DNA of 64,000 bases from assembly GCA_934101425.1 (NCBI GenBank), contig CAKOQQ010000008.1:3088-67087 (forward strand). The letters are read 5' to 3'. Shown here in pieces: positions 9,724-58,564 of the stretch; position 1 is the stretch's first letter; every line of letters begins with the position of its first letter. Under the pieces are notes generated by a model that was not told the origin of the DNA, searched no databases, and was given only the letters and a program-made list of their open reading frames with translations. A program made the position numbers and the translations under genes. Origin of the DNA: an uncultured Bacilli bacterium (GTDB taxonomy: Bacteria; Bacillota_I; Bacilli_A; RF39; UBA660).

Positions 9724-10460
9724 TATTTACCACCTCGCATATCTAAGAAAGCGACTGTTATATTATCAGTACCACCTCTATTGTTGCTTTTTGATATAAG
9801 TTTTTGTAGTTTTTCTTCTATTGTTTTATGTTCATCTAATACTTTTTCTATTGCTTCTTCACTAAGCATATTAGTTAAACCATCACTACATAAGAAAATT
9901 CCTTCTACATTATCTTCAACATCAAATATATCCATTTCTACTTTTTTATCTGCACCAAGTGCTCTCATAAGTACATTCTTTCTTGGATGATTCTTAGCTT
10001 CTTCTTCACTTAATTCTCCACTTCTTACTAATAAGTTTACTAATGTATGATCAGTAGTTATTTTATGTAATCTCTTATTTTTAAGTACATATCCAGAACT
10101 ATCTCCTATATTACCAAATAACAAGAAATCTTTAGTATATAAAGCTAGTACTAAAGTTGTACCCATACCTTCACTACCTGGATTTTCACTAGTATATTTA
10201 TATATTGCTGCATTAGCTTCTCCAACTATTTCTTTTATCCAATTTATAGTATCTTCTTTAGAACCAATTTTACTTATTTGTTCAAATCTTTTACCAATTT
10301 TATTAACAACGATATTTGATGCTATTTCTCCTCCAGTATGCCCTCCCATACCATCAGCTACTATAAGTAAATATTCATCAAAATCATTTTTGATAATAAG
10401 GACACTATCTTCATTTCTTTCCCTAACTTTTCCAGGATCAGTTAAATAAAAATATTCCAT
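9723..10460 (-). CDS. prpC: PP2C-family Ser/Thr phosphatase (Stp/PrpC)
   Basis: RERNEDS, ADGMGGH, SDGL and GGTDNIT motifs. Confidence 0.9.
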   Translation of the reverse strand: MEYFYLTDPGKVRERNEDSVLIIKNDFDEYLLIVADGMGGHTGGEIASNIVVNKIGKRFEQISKIGSKEDTINWIKEIVGEANAAIYKYTSENPGSEGMGTTLVLALYTKDFLLFGNIGDSSGYVLKNKRLHKITTDHTLVNLLVRSGELSEEEAKNHPRKNVLMRALGADKKVEMDIFDVEDNVEGIFLCSDGLTNMLSEEAIEKVLDEHKTIEEKLQKLISKSNNRGGTDNITVAFLDMRGGK

Positions 10461-11479
10461 TATTCACCTCTATTTTCTTTCGCTTTTAATTGACCACAAG
10501 CTCCACTAACTTTAGAACCAAATTCGCGTCTTATAGTCACATTAATATTATGTTTTTTTAAAGTATCATAAAACTTCATAATTACGTCTTTATCACTTTT
10601 CTTATATTTACTACTAGTTTCATTATAAGGTATTAAATTTACATAACAATTTAGTCCCTTAAGTAAGTTAGCTAATTCTATGGCAGAGGATACGCTATCA
10701 TTAACATCTTTAAGTAAAATATATTCAAAAGTAACTCTTCTATTTGTTTTATCTATATATTCTTTTATAGCACTTATAAGTTTTTCTATATTATAAGCTC
10801 TATTAATAGGCATAAGTTCATTTCTAATTTTATTATTAGGTGCATGAAGACTTATCGCTAAATTAACTTGTTTATAATTAGAAAATTCTTTTATTTTAGG
10901 AACTATTCCACAAGTAGATATAGTTATATGTCTACTACCTAAACTAATACCTTTACTATCATTTATAATGTCTATAAATTTAATTACATTATCATAATTA
11001 TCAAAAGGTTCACCTATACCCATAAGTACAATATGAGTAATCCTAAGTGATTCCGTGATTTCTACAGTTAATATTTGACTAACCATTTCAGAAGGTAATA
11101 AATCCCTTACTTTTTTAAGTCTTCCACTTTCACAGAAGGCACATCCCATATTACAACCCAATTCAGTTGAAATACATAAACTATTACCATAGTCGTGAAA
11201 CATAAGTACACACTCTATTTTGTTATTATCACTTAAATTAAATAAATACTTTTTAACACCTGTATCTTCTTCTTTTTTTACTAATTCTAAAAGTCCTATA
11301 GTAAAATCTTCTTTAAGTTTAGTTATAAGTTCTTTTTTTAAATTAGTCATTTCATCAAAAGATGATACTCTTTTTTTATATAACCAATCAAATATTTGAT
11401 CTGCAGTAAACTTTTTATACCCCAAATCTAATAAATAATTGAGTAATTCCTCATATGTAAGATTATAAATACTACTCAT
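10460..11479 (-). CDS. rlmN: 23S rRNA/tRNA adenine-C2 methyltransferase RlmN (radical SAM)
   Basis: CNMGCAFC radical-SAM cluster, C-terminal GACGQL, position after prkC-prpC. Confidence 0.9.
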   Translation of the reverse strand: MSSIYNLTYEELLNYLLDLGYKKFTADQIFDWLYKKRVSSFDEMTNLKKELITKLKEDFTIGLLELVKKEEDTGVKKYLFNLSDNNKIECVLMFHDYGNSLCISTELGCNMGCAFCESGRLKKVRDLLPSEMVSQILTVEITESLRITHIVLMGIGEPFDNYDNVIKFIDIINDSKGISLGSRHITISTCGIVPKIKEFSNYKQVNLAISLHAPNNKIRNELMPINRAYNIEKLISAIKEYIDKTNRRVTFEYILLKDVNDSVSSAIELANLLKGLNCYVNLIPYNETSSKYKKSDKDVIMKFYDTLKKHNINVTIRREFGSKVSGACGQLKAKENRGE

Positions 11480-30220: not shown

Positions 30221-31750
30221 TTAATATTGACTAGCAATCATAACAGATATTAACGAATATGAAGTCTTAATGGAAATAGTTTTATTTTCTTTATCAATCT
30301 GATAAATGGGGGTTTCTTCCCATTTTTGTGTTTTCAAATTAAAACTTAAAATTCTAATATCATTTTCATCAAATGTTAATGTTGGAACTGATATATCAAT
30401 ATTATGGACATTTTTTTCATCTTTATCATAACAATCAATACCATAATTTGATATATTAAATACACTAGTAATCGCGTTTGACCCCTCAATAAGTTCTTTT
30501 AAAAATTCTGTCTCAGAAGTGGTTTGCTTAGTTCCAGAGGCAGATAATAAATCAACTAATTTAATTTTTCCATCATTAAATTGTTTAATTTTATTGAACA
30601 CTATTTCTGGTAATTCTTCATATTCACTAAAATCATCAGAAATATAGTGTCCATAAGCACTATCATTAATTACATGTAAACTATTATCTGCACTAGCAGC
30701 ATTATGTACTAATATTTCATTTTCAGTAATTAAGTAGTTATGATTATTTGCTATTGTCAAGTTATATACATTCACTGAATTATCCAAATTAAGAACTTCT
30801 ATATTTTTTATACTAGTTTTTCCGCCAATACTAGCTGATAATACATCTCCCACTTTTAATTCATATGCTCTAACCCATCCTTTATCAAGTACATAATATT
30901 GATGCTTTTCTGTAGAAGTTATTACTTTATTATTTTTTAATGTTATTTTATATAATTTATTATTTTTTGAAATCATAGTATCAATAACTCTATTTAATTC
31001 TTTTTCGTTACTTTCAATATTTATTGTATATACATAATCACCAATTTTAATATCTTCAATATTCTTTAAACCATTTCTTGTTAATACTTTTGTTCCTGCT
31101 ACAAAACACGTTGAAATTTGAAACAATCCTTTTATTACTGCAACATTTCCAAAAACATCTTCACTTTCAATTTTATAAATATTTGATGCTTTATTAGAAG
31201 TCCCTAAATAAGTTTTTTCATTCCCTCTATAAACAAGTATACCATTTACAAAATATCTTATTTCTTTTATTCCACTCGTATCTGAAGTATTTACATCTAT
31301 TTTATAATTACTAGTACTAGTATTAGTAATTACAGCTGATAAAAGTGGTGCATCTTTTTCAGCACTTCTAAGTATACATTCACTTTCATTTGTTTTAGTG
31401 CTTACAATACTTCCATCACTTTTAATTTCAATACAGTAATCATTAACATACATTTTTCCATATGCATTACCATTAGTATCATAACTTAAATAACCTTTAC
31501 TTGCTTTATCTCCCTCATATGTAAGTGTACTACCCGATAAATCTATATTTTTTACTGTTTCTCCTTCCATTATTTTTTGCATATAATATGTTTTTGCAGC
31601 ACTTACTATATTTCTTGCACTTGCTTCTGCCGCACTTTTTTTAGAGTCTTCTATAATGTTTAATACGGCTGGTACCGCTATTAGTGCAATAACTGCTAGT
31701 ATTACTATAACGGCTAATAACTCTATTAGGGTAAATCCTTTCTTTTTCAT
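30221..31750 (-). CDS. type IV pilin-like protein fused to a Hint (intein-like) autoprocessing domain and a 159-aa C-terminal domain (paralog E)
   Basis: MKKKGFTLIELLAVIVILAV prepilin signal (G-1, F+1, E+5). Residues 1-125 are shared with four paralogs. Residues 215-350 run CFVAGTKVLT...TEKH...ILVHN (Cys1, TxxH, terminal HN); next residue is Ala. Confidence 0.85.
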   Translation of the reverse strand: MKKKGFTLIELLAVIVILAVIALIAVPAVLNIIEDSKKSAAEASARNIVSAAKTYYMQKIMEGETVKNIDLSGSTLTYEGDKASKGYLSYDTNGNAYGKMYVNDYCIEIKSDGSIVSTKTNESECILRSAEKDAPLLSAVITNTSTSNYKIDVNTSDTSGIKEIRYFVNGILVYRGNEKTYLGTSNKASNIYKIESEDVFGNVAVIKGLFQISTCFVAGTKVLTRNGLKNIEDIKIGDYVYTINIESNEKELNRVIDTMISKNNKLYKITLKNNKVITSTEKHQYYVLDKGWVRAYELKVGDVLSASIGGKTSIKNIEVLNLDNSVNVYNLTIANNHNYLITENEILVHNAASADNSLHVINDSAYGHYISDDFSEYEELPEIVFNKIKQFNDGKIKLVDLLSASGTKQTTSETEFLKELIEGSNAITSVFNISNYGIDCYDKDEKNVHNIDISVPTLTFDENDIRILSFNLKTQKWEETPIYQIDKENKTISIKTSYSLISVMIASQY

Positions 31751-33249: not shown

Positions 33250-34071
33250 ATGGCTATTCCAGTTGAAGTTATGACTTCAAAAAAAATAATATATATTGAT
33301 AGAGATGAATATCATCCTGATGATAATCCATTAAGTATTGAGGGTAATCCTTTTTACTTTAAAGATATAGAATCTTTAGATAAATATTTTAATGAATTAT
33401 TGGGTTCTTTACTTGCTAGTAAATTTGATTTAAAAACAGTTAAATATAAACTTGCGTGTATAAGATTAGATGATATATCACTATATGGAATTATTTCTCC
33501 ATCTATGTTTATACCAAATAAAAAATATGTAATGGCAGATAGTATAATAGGCAATAAAAAAATACCTACAGGTCTTGAAAATTTAGATAAAATAGCTGCT
33601 TTCTTTAAGAATGATAAAGAATTAGAACGTTTTATATTAGAATTACTTAAAATGGCTGTACTTGATTTTTATATGAATCAAATAGATAGAGTAAAAGAAA
33701 ATTTCTATATAATTAAAAATCCTCATAGCTTATCACTAGCGCCTTTATATGATTATTCTGAATCATTTAATTCTATATATGATGAATATGGAATTGATTA
33801 TACTTTTAACTACCCTATAAATAGACATTCAAGCACTTATGTATATGGTAATGCTATTATGAAATTAGAATTTCCTAGTGATGATTTATATAGGTTATTT
33901 AATCGATTTCCTCTTTTTAAAGAGTATTTTAAAAGAATATTAGATATAGATATGAATGAACTACTTAATTTAATAAGAAAAAAATATGATTTGAAAGCTC
34001 CTAAATATTTAAGAGAACATTATATGGATTATGATCATGATAAAAAAGAGTTTGTTAAAAATTTAATTTAA
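33250..34071 (+). CDS. HipA-C-terminal-like (kinase-fold) protein, possibly degenerate
   Basis: Start moved to MAIPVEV (ATG 33250, AAAGGTGA RBS; TTGACA-17-TAGTAT upstream). MNQIDRVKENFYII...LAPLYDYSESF resembles the N.DRH..N...aP.yD core with H replaced by V. Confidence 0.45.
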   Translation: MAIPVEVMTSKKIIYIDRDEYHPDDNPLSIEGNPFYFKDIESLDKYFNELLGSLLASKFDLKTVKYKLACIRLDDISLYGIISPSMFIPNKKYVMADSIIGNKKIPTGLENLDKIAAFFKNDKELERFILELLKMAVLDFYMNQIDRVKENFYIIKNPHSLSLAPLYDYSESFNSIYDEYGIDYTFNYPINRHSSTYVYGNAIMKLEFPSDDLYRLFNRFPLFKEYFKRILDIDMNELLNLIRKKYDLKAPKYLREHYMDYDHDKKEFVKNLI

Positions 34072-35137
34072 CAAACTCTTTTATTTTTTCATTATCATTT
34101 TCTAATTCTTTATTTATTATCATTAATTCTAATTTAGAATAAACATCTTTAATAAAACTACCTGGCTTTTTATTTAGCACTTCACATATTTCATTAGCCG
34201 TTATATTTATATCACTTCTTGAATGAATTACTAAATTATTATATCTTTCAATAACACTTTTTTTAGGTATATGTTTAAATTCTGAAACTAAACTTGATAT
34301 ATAAAGCCCATACTTATACATAACATAATCAGTTAGTTCAGTATCCTTTATTTCTTTTATCTTCTTTATGACTTCTTTTTCATTATTAGTAAAACTATAT
34401 ATATCATCTACATTTAATTGAGCCCATATGTTTATAGTAGATGGAGTTAAAATAACATCAGTAAAATCTAATTCTAAGTATTTTGATAAATCTAACTCAT
34501 TTATAAGGTCTATTCCCTTCTTTTTATTTTGTGAAGCAAATATTCTATCTAATTCCTCTTTTTTTCTAAAATATGATAATTTTTTAAGTAAATATCCATA
34601 CTTTTTAATAGCTTTTTTTAAATCTTTATCAAGATCAAAATTAAGTATAGTAGAAAATCTAACTGCTCTTAAAATTCTAAGTGAATCTTCACTTATTTTA
34701 TTTTTAGCATCTCCTACAGTTCTAATTACTTTATTATCAAAATCTTCTTTAATGTTTAAAACATCTAATATTTCACCACGTTCATTCATACATAAAGTAT
34801 TAACTGTAAAGTCTCTTCTTCTTAAATCTTCAAATAAATCATCAGTATATTTTACTTTTGATGGCACTCTATTATTTATGTATTTTAAATCCTTACGATA
34901 TGTAGTTATTTCAAATCGTATTTTCTTATATATTACAGTTACAGAACCATATTCATGAGTTGGTAGTATTACATTATTAAATATATTTTTTATATCTTTT
35001 GGAGTAGCATTTGTACAAATATCAACGTCACTACTCTTTCTTGCTAAATAAATATCTCTAGGATATCCCCCAACTATATATGCTTCAAAACCATTTTCTA
35101 TTATTTTATTTAATACCTTAATCGATGCATTATACAT
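34055..35137 (-). CDS. cca: CCA-adding tRNA nucleotidyltransferase
   Basis: GGYPRDIYLARKSSDVDI, RRDFTVN motifs. Start moved to MYNASIKV (GGAGGG upstream). 3' end overlaps the convergent gene by 17 nt. Confidence 0.85.
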   Translation of the reverse strand: MYNASIKVLNKIIENGFEAYIVGGYPRDIYLARKSSDVDICTNATPKDIKNIFNNVILPTHEYGSVTVIYKKIRFEITTYRKDLKYINNRVPSKVKYTDDLFEDLRRRDFTVNTLCMNERGEILDVLNIKEDFDNKVIRTVGDAKNKISEDSLRILRAVRFSTILNFDLDKDLKKAIKKYGYLLKKLSYFRKKEELDRIFASQNKKKGIDLINELDLSKYLELDFTDVILTPSTINIWAQLNVDDIYSFTNNEKEVIKKIKEIKDTELTDYVMYKYGLYISSLVSEFKHIPKKSVIERYNNLVIHSRSDINITANEICEVLNKKPGSFIKDVYSKLELMIINKELENDNEKIKEFVKLNF

Positions 35138-35174
35138 AGGTCCCTCCAGCATAAAAAAAAGGCAAAACTGCCTT

Positions 35175-35447: not shown

Positions 35448-35595
35448 AATTACCTCCTATTTTGATTAAGCTATCTTGCTTACAATATAAGAATACCATT
35501 TTTTCCTAATAAAATCAACATATTTGCCTTATTTTCTTTATTTTTACTTGATTTTCTTACCTTTTTACAAAAAAAAGAAAGCATTAAACTTTCTT

Positions 35596-36966
35596 TTAAA
35601 ATTCACAATTTTTAGGTGTTCTAGGATAAGGAATAACATCACGAATATTTTCTACTCCAGTTAAGTAAATAAGTAGTCTTTCGAATCCCATACCAAATCC
35701 ACTATGTTTACAACCACCAAATTTTCTTAAGTTAATGTACCAATATAGGTCTTCTTTTGGAACACCCATATCATCCATTCTTTTTACTAAATAGTCATAT
35801 CTTTCTTCTCTTTGACTACCACCCATTAATTCACCTGCACCTGGAACTAATAAGTCTACAGCGGCTACTGTTTTATTATCATCATTCATTCTCATATAGA
35901 ATGCTTTAATATCTTTAGGCCAATCTTTAACAAATACTGGTGCGTTATAAACATCTTTTGTTAAATATTTTTCATGTTCTGTAGCTAAATCTTCTGCATA
36001 ACTTGGAACATTTTCAAATTTTTCTTTTGCTTTTAATAAAATATCTACAGCTTCTTTATGTGTAATTCTAACTGCTTTTGTATTTACTACATGTTTTAAT
36101 TTATCAATAAGTCCATTTTCTACAAATTTATCACAGAATGCGATTTCTTCATAAGCGTGTTCTAAGACATATTTAATAATGTATTTAAGCATATCTTCTT
36201 CGATATCCATAATACCATCTAAATCACAGAAAGCTACTTCTGGTTCAATCATCCAGAATTCACTAGCGTGTGTTTTAGTATTAGAGTTTTCTGCTCTAAA
36301 TGTTGGTCCAAATGTATATGTTTTTTTGAATGCTAGGGCAAATGTTTCTGCTTGTAATTGTCCTGATACAGTAAGGTTTGTAGATTTACCAAAGAAATCA
36401 TCCTTAAAATCTGTTTTATCATCTATTTTATTTAAAGTTGTAACTCTAAACATTTCACCGGCACCTTCACAGTCACTTCCTGTGATAAGTGGTGCATGGA
36501 AATAAACATAGTTATTACTTTGAAAATACATGTGTATTGCTTGTGCTGCAATACTTCTTATTTTAAATACTGCTTGAAATAAGTTTGTTCTAGGTCTTAA
36601 ATATGCTACTTCTCTTAAGAACTCTCTTGTATGTCTTTTTGGTTGAATTGGATAATCTTCAGGACAATCTCCTTCTAGTGTTACTTCTAATACAGATAGT
36701 TCAAATATTTGTTCTTCTTTTGGTGATGAAATAACTTTACCTTTTACAGTAATCGCACTACCAATATGTAATTTGGCTATTTCATCAAATGATTCTAATT
36801 TACTTTCATAAACTAATTGTACACTTTTAAAATAAGTTCCATCGAAGAAATCAATAAATCCCATTTCTTTTTGTTTTCTATGGTTTTTTATCCATCCTTC
36901 TAAAACTACTTCTTTATCTAAATACTCATCTAAATGAGTATATAATTCTCTTAAATCTATTTTCAT
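35596..36966 (-). CDS. asnS: asparaginyl-tRNA synthetase
   Basis: 456 aa class IIb; APLITGSDCEGAGEMF and GFGMGFERL motifs. Start overlaps the gatB stop (ATGA). Terminator at 35571-35597. Confidence 0.9.
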   Translation of the reverse strand: MKIDLRELYTHLDEYLDKEVVLEGWIKNHRKQKEMGFIDFFDGTYFKSVQLVYESKLESFDEIAKLHIGSAITVKGKVISSPKEEQIFELSVLEVTLEGDCPEDYPIQPKRHTREFLREVAYLRPRTNLFQAVFKIRSIAAQAIHMYFQSNNYVYFHAPLITGSDCEGAGEMFRVTTLNKIDDKTDFKDDFFGKSTNLTVSGQLQAETFALAFKKTYTFGPTFRAENSNTKTHASEFWMIEPEVAFCDLDGIMDIEEDMLKYIIKYVLEHAYEEIAFCDKFVENGLIDKLKHVVNTKAVRITHKEAVDILLKAKEKFENVPSYAEDLATEHEKYLTKDVYNAPVFVKDWPKDIKAFYMRMNDDNKTVAAVDLLVPGAGELMGGSQREERYDYLVKRMDDMGVPKEDLYWYINLRKFGGCKHSGFGMGFERLLIYLTGVENIRDVIPYPRTPKNCEF

Positions 36967-38387
36967 TGTTTATCTAGTTCCTCCTTTACAATTTTACCAG
37001 TTAATACTGGATTTGCTTGTCCACTAGTTTTTTTCATTATTTGTCCTACAAAGAAATTATATACATTTCTTCCACTTTTATATTGTTCTACCATTTTTTC
37101 ATTATCTCTGATTACTTCTAGTACCATATTTCTAAGTTCGTCTTCATTCCCCATTTGTTTAATACCTAATTTTTCTACTATTACTTTAGGTTCTTTTTCT
37201 TCTTCCATTACTTTTTTAAATACTTCTTTACCTTGTTTAGATGATATTTTACCAGATTCTACCATATCAATTAAATCAGCTAGCATAGCTGGTGTTAAAT
37301 AAATATCTGTTATTTCTTTTTCTACACTATTTAAATAACCCAAAACAGTATTAGCCACCCAGTTAGATGCTACTTTAGGATTAACTTTTAATTTTATAAC
37401 TTCTTCATAGAAATCAGCTACTTCTATACTTTTAGCAATACTTTTAGCATCTACTAAAGAGACATTATAATTAGTTGTGTAATCTTTAATTCTTTCAAAT
37501 TGTAATCTTGGTAAAGTACTTTTTACTTCATTTATAAGTTCATCTGTAATTTTAAATGGCGGAATATTAGGTTCTGTAAAATACTTATAATCTACTCCAT
37601 CAACTTTTTCTCTCATTCTATATGTCTTCATAGTATTTTCATCATATCTTCTAGTTTCTTGCATTATTTCTTCGCCATTCTTTAAACATTCTTTTTGTCT
37701 TTCTACTTCTACTATGATAGCATCTTTTACATTAGCAAATGATGGAATATTTTTCATTTCTACTCTAGTACCTAATTTATCTGAACCCTTTTCGCTTATA
37801 GATACATTTACATCGCATCTCATTTGACCTAAATCAAGTCTTGCTTCACTAACACTTGTATACAAGAATATTTTTCTTAAGGCATCTAAGAAAGCTAATG
37901 CTTCATCAACACTATGCATACAAGGTTCTGTTACTGTTTCAAGAAGTGGTACACCAGCTCTATTATAATCAATAAGTGAATAATCACTATAATGATCTAA
38001 TGATGCAGTATCTTCTTCTATATGTATATCATGAATATAAATTCTTTTAATCTCATCTTTAACATATATATCAATATATCCATTAGTACCTATTGGTTTC
38101 TTACTTTGAGTAATTTGATATCCTTTAGGTAAATCTGGATAATAATAATTTTTTCTATCAAATACAAGTATATCTGGAATATCACAATTTAGTGCAAGTG
38201 CCATTTTAATTGACTTTTTTAAAGCTTCCATATTTACTGTTGGAAGGATACCAGGGAAAGCTAAATCAACTTGATTAACATTTGTATTAGCTTCACTACT
38301 GTAACCATTTAATCCTTTAGAAAACATTTTTGTTTTACTTTTTACTTCGCAGTGTACTTCAAGTCCTATAGTTACTTCGTATTCCAT
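36963..38387 (-). CDS. gatB: Asp/Glu-tRNA amidotransferase subunit B
   Basis: 474 aa; MEYEVTIGLEVHCEV N-terminus and GatB/YqeY C-terminal domain. Confidence 0.95.
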   Translation of the reverse strand: MEYEVTIGLEVHCEVKSKTKMFSKGLNGYSSEANTNVNQVDLAFPGILPTVNMEALKKSIKMALALNCDIPDILVFDRKNYYYPDLPKGYQITQSKKPIGTNGYIDIYVKDEIKRIYIHDIHIEEDTASLDHYSDYSLIDYNRAGVPLLETVTEPCMHSVDEALAFLDALRKIFLYTSVSEARLDLGQMRCDVNVSISEKGSDKLGTRVEMKNIPSFANVKDAIIVEVERQKECLKNGEEIMQETRRYDENTMKTYRMREKVDGVDYKYFTEPNIPPFKITDELINEVKSTLPRLQFERIKDYTTNYNVSLVDAKSIAKSIEVADFYEEVIKLKVNPKVASNWVANTVLGYLNSVEKEITDIYLTPAMLADLIDMVESGKISSKQGKEVFKKVMEEEKEPKVIVEKLGIKQMGNEDELRNMVLEVIRDNEKMVEQYKSGRNVYNFFVGQIMKKTSGQANPVLTGKIVKEELDKQ

Positions 38388-39781
38388 TATTTTACCTCCT
38401 TAAATTGTCCTTTATAAGACATATTTGATTCTAAGGCATAAGCAATATTAAGAAGCTTTTGATCAAATAAAACACCACTAGTAAGTGATAAACCTATAGG
38501 CATACCCTTAACAAATCCTGATGGAATAGATATACTAGGAAATCCTCCAAAATTACCTATTAACATATGATTTTCAAGTAATAAATATCTATCACTTAAT
38601 TTATCTAAATTTTCACTTTTGAATTTAGGAGCTATACTACTAGATCCCGGTAATATAAGAGCATCATATTCTTTAAATAAACTAGTAAACTTATCAACTA
38701 CTAACCTTCTTATTCTACCAGCATTTAAGAATAATTTTTCTTGATTTTCTTTTTGTAAAATATAACTGCCTAATACAAATCTTCTTTTTATAAGTTCAGA
38801 AAATCCTTTTGTTCTAGCATCAAACATAATATCATTAACATTATTTCCTTCTCCATTTGGCCCAAATATTATACCTGTTAAATTACTATTATTTGAAGTT
38901 GCTTCTGCACATGAAATAGCAAAATAAGTTGGAAATAATGATTCTAATAATCTTTTATCTATACTTACTTCAGATACTGTAGCACCTAAAGATTTACATA
39001 ATTCTATTTTTTCTTTAAAATTATCTAATATCATAGTAAGTTCTTCATCAACATCATCTTTATAATTGTTTATATCTAATAATTCTTTTATATAAAATAA
39101 TTTCATTCCTTTTATATTATTATCTAAGTTATCATGAAAACTAGGTGTTTCGCATCTAAGTGATGTCATATCTTTTTCATCATAACCTTTTATATTATCA
39201 AGTACAAGTGCAGTATCTTCTACACTTCTTGAAAATATACCTACATGATCTAAAGAACAGGCAAATGGAAATAATCCATATCTAGATACTAATCCGTATG
39301 TTGGCTTATATCCTACAATCCCTCCATAAATGGCTGGTTTTCTTACAGAGTCTCCAGTATCACTACCTATAGCAAAAGGAACAATACCTAAAGCTACAGA
39401 AGCAGCTGATCCAGCAGAAGATCCACCTATAAGTCTTTCTTTATCCCATGGATTTCTTACTATACCAGTGTGTCCAGTAGTTCCAGTTCCACCCATTGCA
39501 AGTTCATCTAATACTGTTTTTCCAATACAAACAGCTCCACTTTCTTTTAACTTTGTAACAACTGTTGCATCAAAAAATGGCACATAATCTTTTAATATAT
39601 TAGAAGAAGCAGTTGTAAGTATTCCTTTAGTAGAAAAGTTATCCTTTAAGGCATATGGAATACCTTTTAAAGGGCCATCACATTCATTTTTAGCATCATC
39701 TAATATAGTTACAAATGAATTATATTCATCTTGATACTTATGTGCAAGAGATAATGCAATATCAATATTTTGCTTCATCAT
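38387..39781 (-). CDS. gatA: Asp/Glu-tRNA amidotransferase subunit A
   Basis: Amidase signature GGSSAGSAASVA; K...S-S catalytic layout. Confidence 0.95.
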   Translation of the reverse strand: MMKQNIDIALSLAHKYQDEYNSFVTILDDAKNECDGPLKGIPYALKDNFSTKGILTTASSNILKDYVPFFDATVVTKLKESGAVCIGKTVLDELAMGGTGTTGHTGIVRNPWDKERLIGGSSAGSAASVALGIVPFAIGSDTGDSVRKPAIYGGIVGYKPTYGLVSRYGLFPFACSLDHVGIFSRSVEDTALVLDNIKGYDEKDMTSLRCETPSFHDNLDNNIKGMKLFYIKELLDINNYKDDVDEELTMILDNFKEKIELCKSLGATVSEVSIDKRLLESLFPTYFAISCAEATSNNSNLTGIIFGPNGEGNNVNDIMFDARTKGFSELIKRRFVLGSYILQKENQEKLFLNAGRIRRLVVDKFTSLFKEYDALILPGSSSIAPKFKSENLDKLSDRYLLLENHMLIGNFGGFPSISIPSGFVKGMPIGLSLTSGVLFDQKLLNIAYALESNMSYKGQFKEVK

Positions 39782-40073: not shown

Positions 40074-40083
40074 AATTCCTCCT

Positions 40084-40124
40084 ATAAAACAAAATAAGTT
40101 TCTACAAAATAGTAGAAACTTATT
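40084..40124 (-). terminator. 13-bp perfect hairpin with U-rich tail between tRNA-Asn and the gatC RBS
   Basis: Minus strand AATAAGTTTCTAC-TATTTT-GTAGAAACTTATT then TTGTTTTAT, ending about 8 nt before AGGAGG of gatC. Confidence 0.6.
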
Positions 40125-40134
40125 AAAAATCATA

Positions 40135-40210
40135 TGGCGCCTGATGTAGGACTCGAACCTACGACCTAACGGTTAACAGCCGTGCGCTCTACCGACTGAG
40201 CTAATCAGGC
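40135..40210 (-). tRNA. tRNA-Asn (GUU), CCA encoded
   Basis: Hand-folded cloverleaf: GCCTGAT acceptor, GCTC/GAGC D-stem, loop CTGTTAA, GTAGG/CCTAC T-stem, G73, CCA; 76 nt. Confidence 0.9.
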
Positions 40211-40213
40211 ATA

Positions 40214-40289
40214 TGGCGCTCAATGTAGGACTCGAACCTACGACCTAACGGTTAACAGCCGTGCGCTCTACCGACTGAGCTAATTGAGC
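40214..40289 (-). tRNA. tRNA-Asn (GUU), CCA encoded, second copy with different acceptor stem
   Basis: Identical to copy 1 from position 8 to 65. Acceptor is GCTCAAT/ATTGAGC instead of GCCTGAT/ATCAGGC. Confidence 0.9.
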
Positions 40290-40290
40290 A

Positions 40291-40541
40291 AATATAAAAC
40301 AGCACTCTCCACTAAAAGGGACGAATTACTGTTGTATCCGCGGTACCACCCAATTTATTATATTAAATATAATCACTTTTATGATATGTAATGTGGTAAC
40401 GGATTACAACCGAACTACTCTACTTAATTCGAATAGCTAGCTCCTTAGTGTTATTCATAATATACTTTATTGTTAGCTTCCACCATGCCTAACTCGCTTT
40501 AATTAGTACTTATTACTACTTCTCTATATCTTCGCCTTATG
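40291..40541 (-). promoter_or_regulatory. T-box leader, Asn specifier (AAC, overlapping AAU)
   Basis: T-box motif AAATTGGGTGGTACCGCGG (40356-40338). Antiterminator GGG[TGGTACC]GCG...CGTCCC. Competing terminator ACAGTAATTCGTCC/GGAGAGTGCTGT plus TTTTATATTT. Stem-I elements AGTA, GGTGGAAG. Specifier region ATGAATAACACT. Confidence 0.8.
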
Positions 40542-40547
40542 TATGTA

Positions 40548-40576
40548 ATTATAGTGTATAAAATTCATTTTGTCAA
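40548..40576 (-). promoter_or_regulatory. consensus sigma-A promoter of the T-box leader
   Basis: TTGACA-17 nt-TATAAT on the minus strand. Confidence 0.75.
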
Positions 40577-40616
40577 TAACTTTTAAAAAAGTTAAAGAAA
40601 AAAACACAAATGTGTT

Positions 40617-41831
40617 TTAACTAAATTTATATAATGGCAACTTTAATATAGTAGTTGTTCCTTCACCAACTTTAGAATCATATATGAGTTCTCCCATATG
40701 AGCACTCACTATTTCATTAGATAAAAGTATACCAATTCCATTACCTTTATTCTTAGAAGTATATCCTCCCTCTTTTATCTTATTGATATTATCTTTAGAC
40801 ATTCCTTTACCATTATCATAAAAATTAATATATGCATAATCTTTATCTACATCTATATTAACTTTAACAAATCCATTTTTTTTATTTACTGCTTCAATAG
40901 AATTTTTTACTATATTTATTATAACTTGTCCTAGTCTATTATAGTCACCATCTATATATACTTCATCTTCAAATAAATTATAACTTAAATCAACATTTTT
41001 AGATTTTGCATAATTTAATAGCACATCTAAGTTTTCTTCTAACAACAAATTTATATCAATTATATCTTTATTTATTTGAATTTTTCTTAAAGATAAGAAA
41101 TCTTGTAATAATATTAAAGTCTTATCTATTTCACCTTTTATATTATTAACATACTTAATAGTTTTTTCTTTATTATTTACATCAATCATGTCTAAATAAC
41201 CCTTACATACCGCTATAGGATTCTTTATTTCATGAGTTATTTTAAATATCATATCTCTTATTTGTTTTTCTTTTTCTATTTCTTTTAAATTCAATGAATA
41301 CTTAATAAGTTTATCACCTATTTTTACTAACATATTAATAAATACCGTAGTTATACAGAATAATATACACTCAAATAAAAATTCATATAATACTACATTT
41401 AATAATAAATAAGTAAATATAATTTTTATTATAAGAGATATTATAAATATAATATAATTTTTAATTTTATAATGTGAGCATACTAAATATATTACATAGT
41501 ACATAATATATTCTATGATGCCATACACTATATTAAAATCAAATTTTATGTAGTAAAAATAAAGAATAAACATAGACAATAATAAACCAATATTCTTCTT
41601 GTTTAAAGAATATGCGATTACGATTGGTATGTTTATCATTAAGTAATAATCATCTTTTATTGTATTTGAATATATAAAAAATAAATATATAGATAAAAAT
41701 AAAGACATATCTATTAAAATATTTTTTATTTTTTCATCATGTTTTACAGTATATGAATTATAAAATAAATAAAATATAAATGGATAAGAAATTAAAATTA
41801 TTTGTAATAATATATTACTAAAAATATTCAT
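40617..41831 (-). CDS. orphan sensor histidine kinase with polytopic N-terminal membrane domain
   Basis: H-box ITHEIKNPIAV, N-box NIVKNSIEA, G-boxes YDNGKGM and GNGIGILL. No response regulator adjacent. Terminator AAAACACA-TT-TGTGTTTT overlaps the stop. Confidence 0.85.
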   Translation of the reverse strand: MNIFSNILLQIILISYPFIFYLFYNSYTVKHDEKIKNILIDMSLFLSIYLFFIYSNTIKDDYYLMINIPIVIAYSLNKKNIGLLLSMFILYFYYIKFDFNIVYGIIEYIMYYVIYLVCSHYKIKNYIIFIISLIIKIIFTYLLLNVVLYEFLFECILFCITTVFINMLVKIGDKLIKYSLNLKEIEKEKQIRDMIFKITHEIKNPIAVCKGYLDMIDVNNKEKTIKYVNNIKGEIDKTLILLQDFLSLRKIQINKDIIDINLLLEENLDVLLNYAKSKNVDLSYNLFEDEVYIDGDYNRLGQVIINIVKNSIEAVNKKNGFVKVNIDVDKDYAYINFYDNGKGMSKDNINKIKEGGYTSKNKGNGIGILLSNEIVSAHMGELIYDSKVGEGTTTILKLPLYKFS

Positions 41832-46218: not shown

Positions 46219-46247
46219 ATTATATCTTCTGATTTCGGTAATGTCAA
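46219..46247 (-). promoter_or_regulatory. consensus sigma-A promoter of pilin A leader
   Basis: TTGACA-17 nt-TATAAT. Confidence 0.7.
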
Positions 46248-48599: not shown

Positions 48600-48628
48600 A
48601 TTATATCTTCCGATTTCGGTAATGTCAA
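48600..48628 (-). promoter_or_regulatory. consensus sigma-A promoter of pilin C leader
   Basis: TTGACA-17 nt-TATAAT. Confidence 0.7.
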
Positions 48629-57895: not shown

Positions 57896-58437
57896 CTATT
57901 TTTCTTTTAATGGCGCAAGTATCATAGTCATAAATCTTCCTTCTAATTTAGGATTTTGTTCTATGACAGCGATATTTTCTAGAGTTTTTGCAAATCTAAG
58001 TAATACTTCTTTTCCTAATTCTGGGTGAGCCATTTCTCTTCCCTTAAATCTTATACTAACTTTAATCTTATGTCCTTTTTCTAAATATTTAGTAGAGTTT
58101 TTAACTCTAGTATTAAAGTCATGAATATCAATTGAAACTGATAATCTATATTCTTTAACTTCTAAAGTATTTTCTCTTTGTCTTTTTTGATTTTCTTTTT
58201 GTCTTTTCTTAGTTTCATATTTGTATTTATTGTAATCCATAATTTTACATACTTGTGGATTAGCATTTGGACTAATTAAAACTAAATCAAAACCTGCATA
58301 AGTTGCTAAAGTTCTAGCATCTTCAATTCTTTTGATACCTAATTGTTCTCCATTAGGACCTATAACCATTACTTCTTTTGCTCTTATTTGTTCATTTATA
58401 AACAAATCTCTGTCTTTACTAGCGATATCCCACACCT
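57896..58437 (-). CDS. infC: translation initiation factor IF-3 (probable non-AUG start)
   Basis: INEQIRAKEVMVIGPNGEQLG onwards is canonical IF-3. The listed upstream Met extension covers GGAGGTG; an in-frame ATC at 58437 lies 8 nt after it. Unusual AUU-class starts are the rule for infC. Confidence 0.85.
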
Positions 58438-58440
58438 CCA

Positions 58441-58564
58441 AATAAAAAAGTAGATACAAAGTATCCACTTAAAACCATATCAAAAATATTATAATGGCAT
58501 TTTACCCAAAGACTTAATCAATCGGGTGAGAAGTGGATACTTCTTCTTTCCTTTTTCAATCACT
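58441..58564 (-). promoter_or_regulatory. L20-leader-like attenuator upstream of infC
   Basis: Terminator AGTGGATAC-TTT-GTATCTACT+T6 (58455-58481). An upstream segment GAAGTATCCACTTC can pair alternatively with AAGTGGATACT. Position matches the Firmicute infC-rpmI-rplT leader. Confidence 0.5.

Follow-up and report, generated by a model that had tools for sequence, protein, structure and literature searches.

An Asn T-box riboswitch predicted to gate the genes of its own ligand tRNA together with gatCAB-asnS in an uncultured Bacilli bacterium

T-box riboswitches are described as regulators of aminoacyl-tRNA synthetase genes and of genes for amino-acid biosynthesis and transport. The locus considered here raises the question of whether such an element may also control the supply of the transfer RNA (tRNA) that it senses. 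It lies on the minus strand of a 64,000-nucleotide (nt) stretch of contig CAKOQQ010000008.1 (positions 3,088 to 67,087; this whole stretch is called the window below) from an uncultured Bacilli bacterium, and comprises a promoter, an asparagine-specific (Asn) T-box leader, two tRNA-Asn genes, a terminator-shaped hairpin, the genes gatC, gatA and gatB of the amidotransferase GatCAB, the asparagine-tRNA ligase gene asnS, and a terminator. All these elements had been proposed in an earlier prediction made from sequence alone (hereafter the original prediction), and each was found in its place on the minus strand (Table 1). Our analysis makes it probable that they give one T-box-gated transcript, from which the tRNAs would be cut out and in which a leaky terminator would pass part of the transcription on to gatCAB-asnS.

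The window leader has the T-box features that were looked for: a score above the Rfam threshold, a specifier loop, the Stem I motifs, a UGGN bulge, and mutually exclusive antiterminator and terminator. The Rfam scan that the original prediction had proposed gave a match to RF00230 at 40541-40314 (128.1 bits, gathering threshold 93, E = 4.4e-28), with model positions 1-219 of 219 matched. In the covariance-model alignment the specifier is AAC, as had been claimed, within the loop GAA-U-AAC-A (40456-40449); the purine A follows it at 40449, and the cognate tRNA-Asn, with anticodon GUU, is encoded 160 nt downstream. The distal motifs of Stem I on which the tRNA elbow docks, the AG bulge and the distal loop, are represented by AAAGCGAG and GGUGGAA, which align with high posterior probability to the conserved AGAGA and GGUGaaA of the model. 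The antiterminator, GGG[UGGUACC]GCG...CGUCCC with a 7-nt bulge, folds as GGG[7-nt bulge]GCGGAU...AUUCGUCCC (-7.1 kcal/mol), and its UGGU is predicted to pair with the G73-CCA end of the tRNA through a G-U pair. The terminator is the more stable of the two folds (-10.6 to -11.2 kcal/mol, z = -2.46); as the CGUCCC strand is common to both, they are mutually exclusive. The first tRNA-Asn gene begins at the base right after the U-tract of this terminator, and the second, 3 nt farther on, differs from it only by compensated changes in the acceptor stem.

The same layout was found in other genomes. The nearest relatives of the window GatA, in a GTDB search with one genome per species, are encoded by uncultured gut 'Bacilli/Mollicutes' metagenome-assembled genomes (MAGs) at 57-70% identity. 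Among 22 related genome loci (loci are designated by L numbers), 16 have an Rfam T-box upstream of the operon, so that an Asn T-box stands ahead of gatCAB in these as well as in the window. One to three tRNA-Asn genes lie between the T-box and gatC in five of the 22 (L001, L003, L006, L007, L024), and in ten the T-box terminator stands directly before the ribosome-binding site (RBS) of gatC, with no tRNA between. Two further arrangements were seen: in L020 a free-standing tRNA-Asn gene with its own promoter and terminator lies just upstream of a T-box/aspS/gatCAB unit, and in L012, which lacks a T-box, a free-standing tRNA-Asn gene follows gatB and is preceded by a promoter of its own. As regards the synthetase gene downstream of gatB, a bacterial-type aspS is present in most loci (13 relatives with intact loci), and asnS was found only in the window, L001, L003 and L007. 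As most relatives carry aspS, the window operon can be regarded as a variant of an Asn T-box/gatCAB/aspS pathway operon.

Metagenomes were scanned with a pattern in which the T-box core is joined to the D-arm of a tRNA, only one D-arm sequence, TAGCTCAGNNGGTAGAG, being used. Of the 110 stretches retrieved, 56 were Asn T-boxes followed by one to five tRNA-Asn genes wherever the contig was long enough, and about 25 were phenylalanine-type (Phe) leaders followed by tRNA-Phe. The remainder were set aside: about 17 were false positives formed by tandem tRNA-Phe genes with the 3' end GGTGGCACCAC, and about 10 were GC-rich chance matches beside Lys, His, Ala, Gly, Thr or Val tRNAs. The Asn metagenome set, the window and the five genome loci, with duplicates removed, gave 50 distinct Asn T-box/tRNA-Asn/gatCAB sequences from uncultured, mostly gut, Firmicutes in gut and other metagenomes; before this merging, the complete order through to gatCAB was counted in about 47 metagenome loci. 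A hidden Markov model built from the Asn T-boxes (nhmmer) matched every locus holding leader sequence, one contig starting too close to be matched. In the alignment of the related loci the specifier GAA-N-AAC-A occupies the equivalent position throughout the Asn set, and the T-box bulge is either UGGU or UGGC.

In two of these loci, L024 (4880-5300) and L057, the Asn T-box begins about 22 nt after a tRNA-Ile/tRNA-Glu pair, and a separate promoter for it could not be recognized. Here the T-box seems to lie within a tRNA operon, of which it would gate no more than the distal tRNA-Asn genes and gatCAB-aspS. Loci of the UGGC group, about half of the Asn T-box/tRNA loci, have a hairpin that competes with the antiterminator and lacks a U-tract, its tail being, e.g., AAACAAAAA or CUAUAUUAA. 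Such U-tract-less leaders were seen in L001 (5345-5413), L003, L007, L041, L045, L054, L056, L067 and about 15 more metagenome loci, and their hairpins end 1-19 nt ahead of the tRNA 5' end. One possibility is that they affect the 5' processing of the tRNA rather than termination.

The location of promoters provides the main argument for a common transcript. The window holds three perfect matches to the sigma-70 consensus, against 0.09 expected in 64 kb, and one of them lies upstream of the T-box. In a sigma-70 scan of the window, nothing promoter-like reached 9/12 in the interval from the T-box core to the tRNAs, where an own promoter would make the tRNAs an independent transcription unit, or in that from the tRNAs to gatC, as the original prediction had held. 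In the related loci the picture is the same: ahead of the T-box, 41 of 49 show a sigma-70 promoter with an 11-12/12 match (28 of the 41 perfect), and no sigma-70 site scoring 10/12 or more was found from the T-box core to the first tRNA (50 loci) or from the last tRNA to gatC (46 loci). The free-standing tRNA-Asn genes of L012 and L020 served as positive controls; both have clear promoters and terminators of their own (TTGACA-17-TATTAT is the promoter in L020), so promoters are easy to recognize in these genomes where present. Since a strong promoter occurs only upstream of the T-box, the tRNAs and gatCAB would be read from it. Comparison thus gives strong support to the proposal that the T-box-regulated transcript includes the tRNA-Asn genes. 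The other two perfect TTGACA-17-TATAAT promoters of the window, also on the minus strand (46219-46247 and 48600-48628), have near-identical spacers (TTACCGAAATC[A/G]GAAGA) and precede two similar-sized open reading frames (ORFs); the counterparts of both ORFs in L031 have a weak match to the Pfam N_methyl (prepilin-type) domain.

The hairpin between the second tRNA and gatC has the shape of an intrinsic terminator, a stem-loop followed by a U-tract. It contains three G-C pairs and has 7 U in the 9-nt tail; its predicted energy is about -16 kcal/mol (z = -4.85), none of 200 shuffled sequences folding as well, and its region ends immediately before the gatC RBS. By a rule of a perfect stem of at least 6 bp, a loop of 3-8 and at least 5 U in 8, a hairpin is present between the last tRNA and the gatC RBS in 34 of 46 loci, versus 1.0 +/- 1.0 in shuffled sequences (maximum 5), and several more loci have bulged versions. 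The stem sequences vary widely (e.g., AACAAGTC.., AATCAGTCC.., ATAAGTCCTA.., GGGCGTAGG.., TTCTGAA..); what is kept is not the sequence, and includes the shape, the U-tract, the start about 10 nt past the CCA and the end 3-15 nt before the RBS. Origin from a decayed second T-box terminator was considered and rejected, as there is no TTCGTCCC strand and the stems are unrelated. We read this hairpin as a putative leaky intrinsic terminator giving more tRNA than messenger RNA (mRNA), and the proposal of the original prediction that it sets the tRNA:mRNA stoichiometry fits the conservation data. After 3' processing of the tRNA, the hairpin would stand near the 5' end of the gatC message and might protect it.

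Taken as one circuit, the locus would work as follows. A single transcription unit would start from the promoter at 40576-40548 and would be gated by a canonical class-I transcriptional T-box reading tRNA-Asn. With tRNA-Asn mostly charged, the terminator (40333-40290) would form, and nothing downstream would be made. Uncharged tRNA-Asn would pair with AAC through its anticodon and with UGGU through its free G73-CCA end, stabilizing the antiterminator and letting polymerase read on. The first products would be two tRNA-Asn precursors, presumably freed by RNase P and 3' processing, the leader thereby being severed from the message; the hairpin after the tRNAs would stop part of the polymerases, and the remainder would transcribe gatC-gatA-gatB-asnS. 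Such a circuit would raise tRNA-Asn, the amidotransferase and AsnRS together, with tRNA in excess over mRNA, and the processed tRNAs would join the pool sampled by the riboswitch. Being located downstream of the T-box terminator, the tRNAs cannot sway the decision on their own transcript; as the product tRNA is also the inducer, the loop would be positive. T-boxes respond to the ratio of uncharged to charged tRNA, and charged tRNA competes for Stem I; the loop is therefore expected to be bounded. What we infer from this layout is that the unit is co-transcribed, that the tRNAs are processed out of it, that the internal terminator is partly read through, and that the feedback behaves as described.

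Several points weigh against this mechanism. First, the promoter scans covered the sigma-70 consensus type only, the same rule being applied to the window and the related loci. Second, were the operon copies the only tRNA-Asn genes, a tight T-box shut-off would be hazardous. Third, the operon tRNAs begin with a G1-C72 pair, a published anti-determinant, and it is therefore doubtful that they are good GatCAB substrates (see below). Finally, the most serious reservation about co-regulation of gatCAB-asnS concerns the apparent strength of the hairpin behind the tRNAs: this hairpin looks stronger than the operon-end terminator (-8.8 kcal/mol), so that read-through into gatCAB-asnS could be small. 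An alternative explanation starts from this last point and assumes that the T-box controls tRNA-Asn only, the hairpin being an efficient terminator and gatCAB-asnS being expressed from a non-sigma-70 promoter or by rare read-through stabilized by processing. In shape and strength the hairpin is indeed like a genuine terminator, and it is conserved; similar hairpins end the free-standing tRNA-Asn genes of L012 and L020, and in L127 and L049 a second T-box follows the tRNAs, as though the downstream genes needed their own gate. However, in nearly all loci the hairpin ends so close to the gatC RBS that there is no room for a promoter, and the scan of the 46 loci found no candidate there. Moreover, in the tRNA-less relatives the same gatC RBS directly follows the T-box terminator, which identifies gatCAB as a target of the T-box in this clade. 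Control of the tRNAs only is thus unlikely, and the common transcript with a leaky internal terminator is preferred.

Whether control of tRNA-Asn synthesis is itself a selected feature can be approached through loci with two T-boxes. In L127 (11029-10100, minus strand) a promoter is followed by an Asn T-box, five tRNA-Asn genes, a second complete Asn T-box and gatCAB; the two T-boxes score 135 and 119 bits, and the second starts about 10 nt past the CCA of the fifth tRNA. L049 is built alike, with two tRNA-Asn genes. In both loci the tRNAs are flanked by Asn T-boxes and a promoter could not be accommodated, so that T-box 1 is the direct gate of the tRNA array. As only tRNAs are under its direct control, this speaks for selection of T-box control over tRNA-Asn synthesis and against a mere side effect. 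Both specifier loops of L127 read GAAGAACA, which also holds an overlapping GAA (Glu) codon.

The metagenome scan also revealed a parallel for Phe. In L103 (911-1340) an Rfam T-box of 115 bits with the specifier GAA-G-UUC-A is followed by two tRNA-Phe genes and then by unrelated ORFs. In L035 (1100-4862) a Phe-type leader precedes tRNA-Phe(GAA) and pheS-pheT, the latter confirmed by Pfam. The leader of L035, L094, L104 and L122 is of a shorter type (specifier GAA-N-UUC-A) and is followed by tRNA-Phe and a PheS-like ORF, which in L094, L104 and L122 was judged from the start of the ORF. The nhmmer profile built from Asn T-boxes missed these short Phe leaders, and a close relative of them scores 63.9 bits on Rfam, below the gathering threshold; therefore, this subclass is called T-box-like only. 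From the Asn and Phe arrangements together it follows that a cognate tRNA gene behind a T-box arose more than once.

Several Phe-type loci are aberrant. L042 (3690-6067), L053, L102, L114, L125, L143, L110 and L133 contain a Phe-type leader, a tRNA-Phe-like gene and a GTGATT-repeat element; downstream in this group are genes for a 373-aa single-chain PheRS-like protein (class II core and FDX-ACB), which has the domain plan of mitochondrial PheRS, and for a methyltransferase. Several tRNAs of the group have an aberrant anticodon loop, called 'AAA' or 'ACT' by ARAGORN, and in L102 U33 is lost. In L037 (minus strand, T-box at 320-556) the sequence behind an Rfam-grade Phe T-box matches tRNA-Phe over the 5' half and diverges thereafter, and no tRNA is called; a decayed gene is one possibility, and a tRNA that is interrupted or contains an intron is another.

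These loci bear on a further alternative, in which the tRNAs are co-transcribed but the layout is a neutral by-product of the tRNA-Asn/gatCAB neighborhood without a selected regulatory role. The finding of tRNA-Asn beside gatCAB in three arrangements, upstream of the T-box promoter (L020), after gatB (L012) and inside the leader (the window), points to local reshuffling and would suit this explanation, as would the ten related loci without tRNAs. It is at odds with the persistence of the layout over GatA identities down to 57%, over tRNA copy numbers from one to five and over both aspS-type and asnS-type operons, with its independent appearance for Phe, and with the direct gating of tRNAs only by T-box 1 in L127 and L049; we regard it as improbable. 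Least of all do we favor constitutive transcription of tRNA-Asn from an own promoter overlapping the T-box terminator, the T-box being placed there by an accident of insertion: the AT-rich region does contain weak -10-like strings, e.g., TATATT at 40296-40291, but this one stops 1 nt short of the tRNA 5' end and lacks a -35 partner, the scans of the window interval and of the 50 loci found no candidate, and across loci only 1-19 nt separate the terminator stem from the 5' end of the tRNA, which makes such a promoter very improbable.

The preferred mechanism would supply tRNA-Asn together with GatCAB, and the fit between the two deserves attention. G1-C72, C2-G71 and G73 are common to all 102 operon tRNA-Asn copies (55 unique sequences); G1-C72 is invariant, whereas the acceptor pairs 3-70 to 7-66 covary freely, and the free-standing tRNA-Asn genes of L012 and L020 likewise have G1-C72. 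All 49 bacterial tRNA-Asn aligned by Bailly et al. have U1-A72, an identity element for bacterial GatCAB, and the change to G1-C72 cut amidation by Neisseria meningitidis GatCAB 102-fold (PMC1635274). U1-A72 is found neither in the window copies nor in any of the 55 unique operon sequences. The short D-loop without nucleotide 20A, in contrast, is present, all copies having the 8-nt D-loop AGU(C/U)GGUA. According to Nakamura et al., U1-A72 is read by a 3_10 turn of GatB (K183-M184-E185-E186 in Staphylococcus aureus), which is 1-3 residues shorter in archaeal GatB (PMC2811023). In an ungapped alignment the turn of the window GatB has the same length as in S. aureus and the motif R-L-D-L, and an archaeal-type deletion was thus rejected. 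None of the GatB proteins of this clade has the M-E-(E/K/Q)-G signature, which the proteobacterial GatB proteins L021-L026, retrieved by the same search, have kept. This suggests that GatB and tRNA-Asn may have co-evolved away from the textbook U1-A72 rule. An invariant G1-C72 in tRNAs linked to gatCAB challenges the generality of this rule for bacterial amidotransferases, and the diverged GatB segment of the clade is a specific candidate for the reader of the first base pair.

Table 1. Positions of the features of the T-box unit and its borders in the window (listed in the direction of transcription).
Feature	Position	Strand	Evidence and details
Histidine-kinase ORF	41831-40617	minus	Upstream neighbor of the T-box unit
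Terminator-like hairpin and U-tract of the histidine-kinase gene	40594..40618	minus	AAAACACA/TGTGTTTT then UUUCUUU, read from sequence
Sigma-70 promoter	40548..40576	minus	TTGACA 40576-40571, 17-nt spacer, TATAAT 40553-40548; 12/12 match
T-box leader (Stem I, Stem II, IIA/B, Stem III, antiterminator/terminator)	40290..40541	minus	Rfam RF00230 match and terminator extension
Specifier codon AAC (Asn)	40450..40452	minus	Covariance-model alignment, specifier loop GAA-U-AAC-A
T-box sequence and antiterminator	40318..40356	minus	T-box sequence AAATTGGGTGGTACCGCGG at 40356-40338; UGGU bulge 40348-40345
T-box terminator hairpin and U-tract	40290..40333	minus	Hairpin 40333-40298; U-tract UUAUAUUU at 40297-40290
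tRNA-Asn(GUU), copy 1	40214..40289	minus	ARAGORN; Rfam tRNA 72.4 bits; G1-C72, G73, CCA encoded
tRNA-Asn(GUU), copy 2	40135..40210	minus	ARAGORN; Rfam tRNA 71.8 bits; CCA encoded
Terminator-shaped hairpin and U-rich tail	40084..40124	minus	Hairpin 40124-40093, 13 perfect pairs, loop of 6, tail UUGUUUUAU
RBS AGGAGG and gatC	RBS 40083-40078; gatC 40073-39783	minus	TIGR00135, 50 bits (cutoff 47.1)
gatA	38387..39781	minus	TIGR00132, 447.5 bits (below cutoff 481.1)
gatB	36963..38387	minus	NF004012, 575.7 bits; end-to-end alignment with S. aureus GatB 2df4_B, E = 4.9e-125
asnS (asparagine-tRNA ligase)	35596..36966	minus	NF003037, 618.1 bits (cutoff 414); TIGR00457, 566.5 bits
Operon-end intrinsic terminator	35567..35597 (hairpin 35597-35573)	minus	10-bp A/U-rich hairpin and U-tract, -8.8 kcal/mol

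The window GatA scores under the model cutoff and is taken as a divergent GatA. The asnS gene overlaps gatB through ATGA, and models of AspRS score far lower on its product, which is thus a true AsnRS. The hairpin behind the upstream histidine-kinase gene is predicted to insulate the T-box unit against upstream transcription. Two genes downstream of asnS, behind an HU-like gene, lies a gene for the CCA-adding enzyme (34055-35152, minus strand); both tRNA-Asn genes nonetheless encode CCA.

The window has a G+C content of 26% and contains genes for SpoVAD, MurE, MraY, PFOR, UvrA, ClpB and a PASTA kinase, as well as RecU, DnaD and CamS homologues; with this gene content, the host is probably a spore-forming low-GC Firmicute. 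Asn makes up 7.3% of the residues encoded by the window ORFs, which implies a high demand on a single tRNA-Asn species, and AAU accounts for 89% of the Asn codons. No aspS, glnS, asnA or asnB was found among ten large window ORFs checked. An AsnRS protein identical to that of the window was found on contigs from ENA metagenome assemblies, one of them from a Hadza sample. A 509-aa protein with a HINT/intein-type domain is encoded at 30221-31750 of the window, and also in L031 and L033. The Hadza contig L032 is collinear apart from a 101-aa ORF in its place, and the position is therefore variable among strains. A ribosomal protein L20 leader (RF00558) at 58436-58554 (minus strand) is borderline, with 58.8 bits against a threshold of 58.7. 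Among the related loci, L015, from a gut MAG labelled Muribaculaceae, contains an ornate large extremophilic (OLE) RNA at 10424-10972 (367 bits); its gatCAB is of the low-GC Firmicute type, and the label of the bin is therefore doubtful.

An Asn-responsive T-box reportedly controls the aspS/gatCAB transamidation operon of Clostridium acetobutylicum, in work ascribed to Saad et al. of 2012 (J Biol Chem 287:20382) and 2013 (PNAS 110:12756). That element is said to contain two codons, the overlapping one being GAA (Glu); in the window, the context U-AAC makes the overlapping second codon UAA. The C. acetobutylicum work is cited in passages of two papers (PMC4574755, PMC11404447). The window system resembles it in being a canonical transcriptional T-box with an AAC specifier upstream of gatCAB, and most relatives of the window carry aspS too. 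It differs, first, in that the riboswitch terminator is separated from the first protein gene by one to five genes of the ligand tRNA; second, in that a further, constitutive terminator-like hairpin follows the tRNAs; and third, in that the window operon has asnS instead of the AspRS gene.

Tandem T-box leaders exist as well, e.g., ahead of Bacillus subtilis thrZ. L127 and L049 are similar in carrying two Asn T-boxes in series on one transcript; however, these are separated by the tRNA array, so that the first gate has products of its own. Mixed tRNA-mRNA operons are represented by Escherichia coli thrU-tyrU-glyT-thrT-tufB, and internal attenuating terminators by rpsU-dnaG-rpoD. The likeness to these types lies in tRNAs that stand ahead of the message and are excised, and in an internal terminator leading to unequal expression; neither operon, however, is gated by a riboswitch sensing the tRNA that it encodes. 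The Asn-transamidosome is a ribonucleoprotein of ND-AspRS, tRNA-Asn and GatCAB (PMC2811023, PMC3367201). L006 and L024 encode all three components in one T-box-gated unit; the operon tRNA-Asn has G1-C72 and not U1-A72 (PMC1635274), and the window operon lacks aspS. Two surveys of T-box targets name only protein-coding genes (PMC2494555, PMC7778990), and a full-text literature search found no description of T-box-controlled tRNA genes, although an earlier mention is possible (Saad 2012, 2013; Vitreschak 2008). Thus, what is new here is that the regulated product is the ligand tRNA of the riboswitch itself, followed by an internal terminator; the T-box as such and the operon are akin to the C. 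acetobutylicum system.

We give about even chances to a broader conclusion, that T-boxes directly gating the genes of their own ligand tRNAs constitute a widespread undescribed class in uncultured low-GC Firmicutes. This class would cover at least Asn and Phe, and would include T-box/array/T-box loci, U-tract-less platforms that may act on something other than termination (e.g., tRNA 5' processing), and a self-contained module of tRNA, AspRS or AsnRS, and GatCAB with co-evolved G1-C72 tRNA and GatB. A riboswitch controlling the supply of its own RNA ligand would place a bacterial tRNA gene under direct control by sensing, and the autoregulatory loop of a T-box over its ligand tRNA is not known to have been analyzed before. 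A joint rise of tRNA, amidotransferase and synthetase is plausibly sensible in an Asn-rich proteome, as the tRNA is both a co-substrate and the scaffold of the transamidosome (PMC2811023, PMC3367201). The layout lends itself to studying, in a natural system, how tRNA abundance, beyond charging, is tuned to amino-acid supply, and suggests that these bacteria may treat tRNA-Asn as a stoichiometric component of the pathway that makes asparagine on tRNA.

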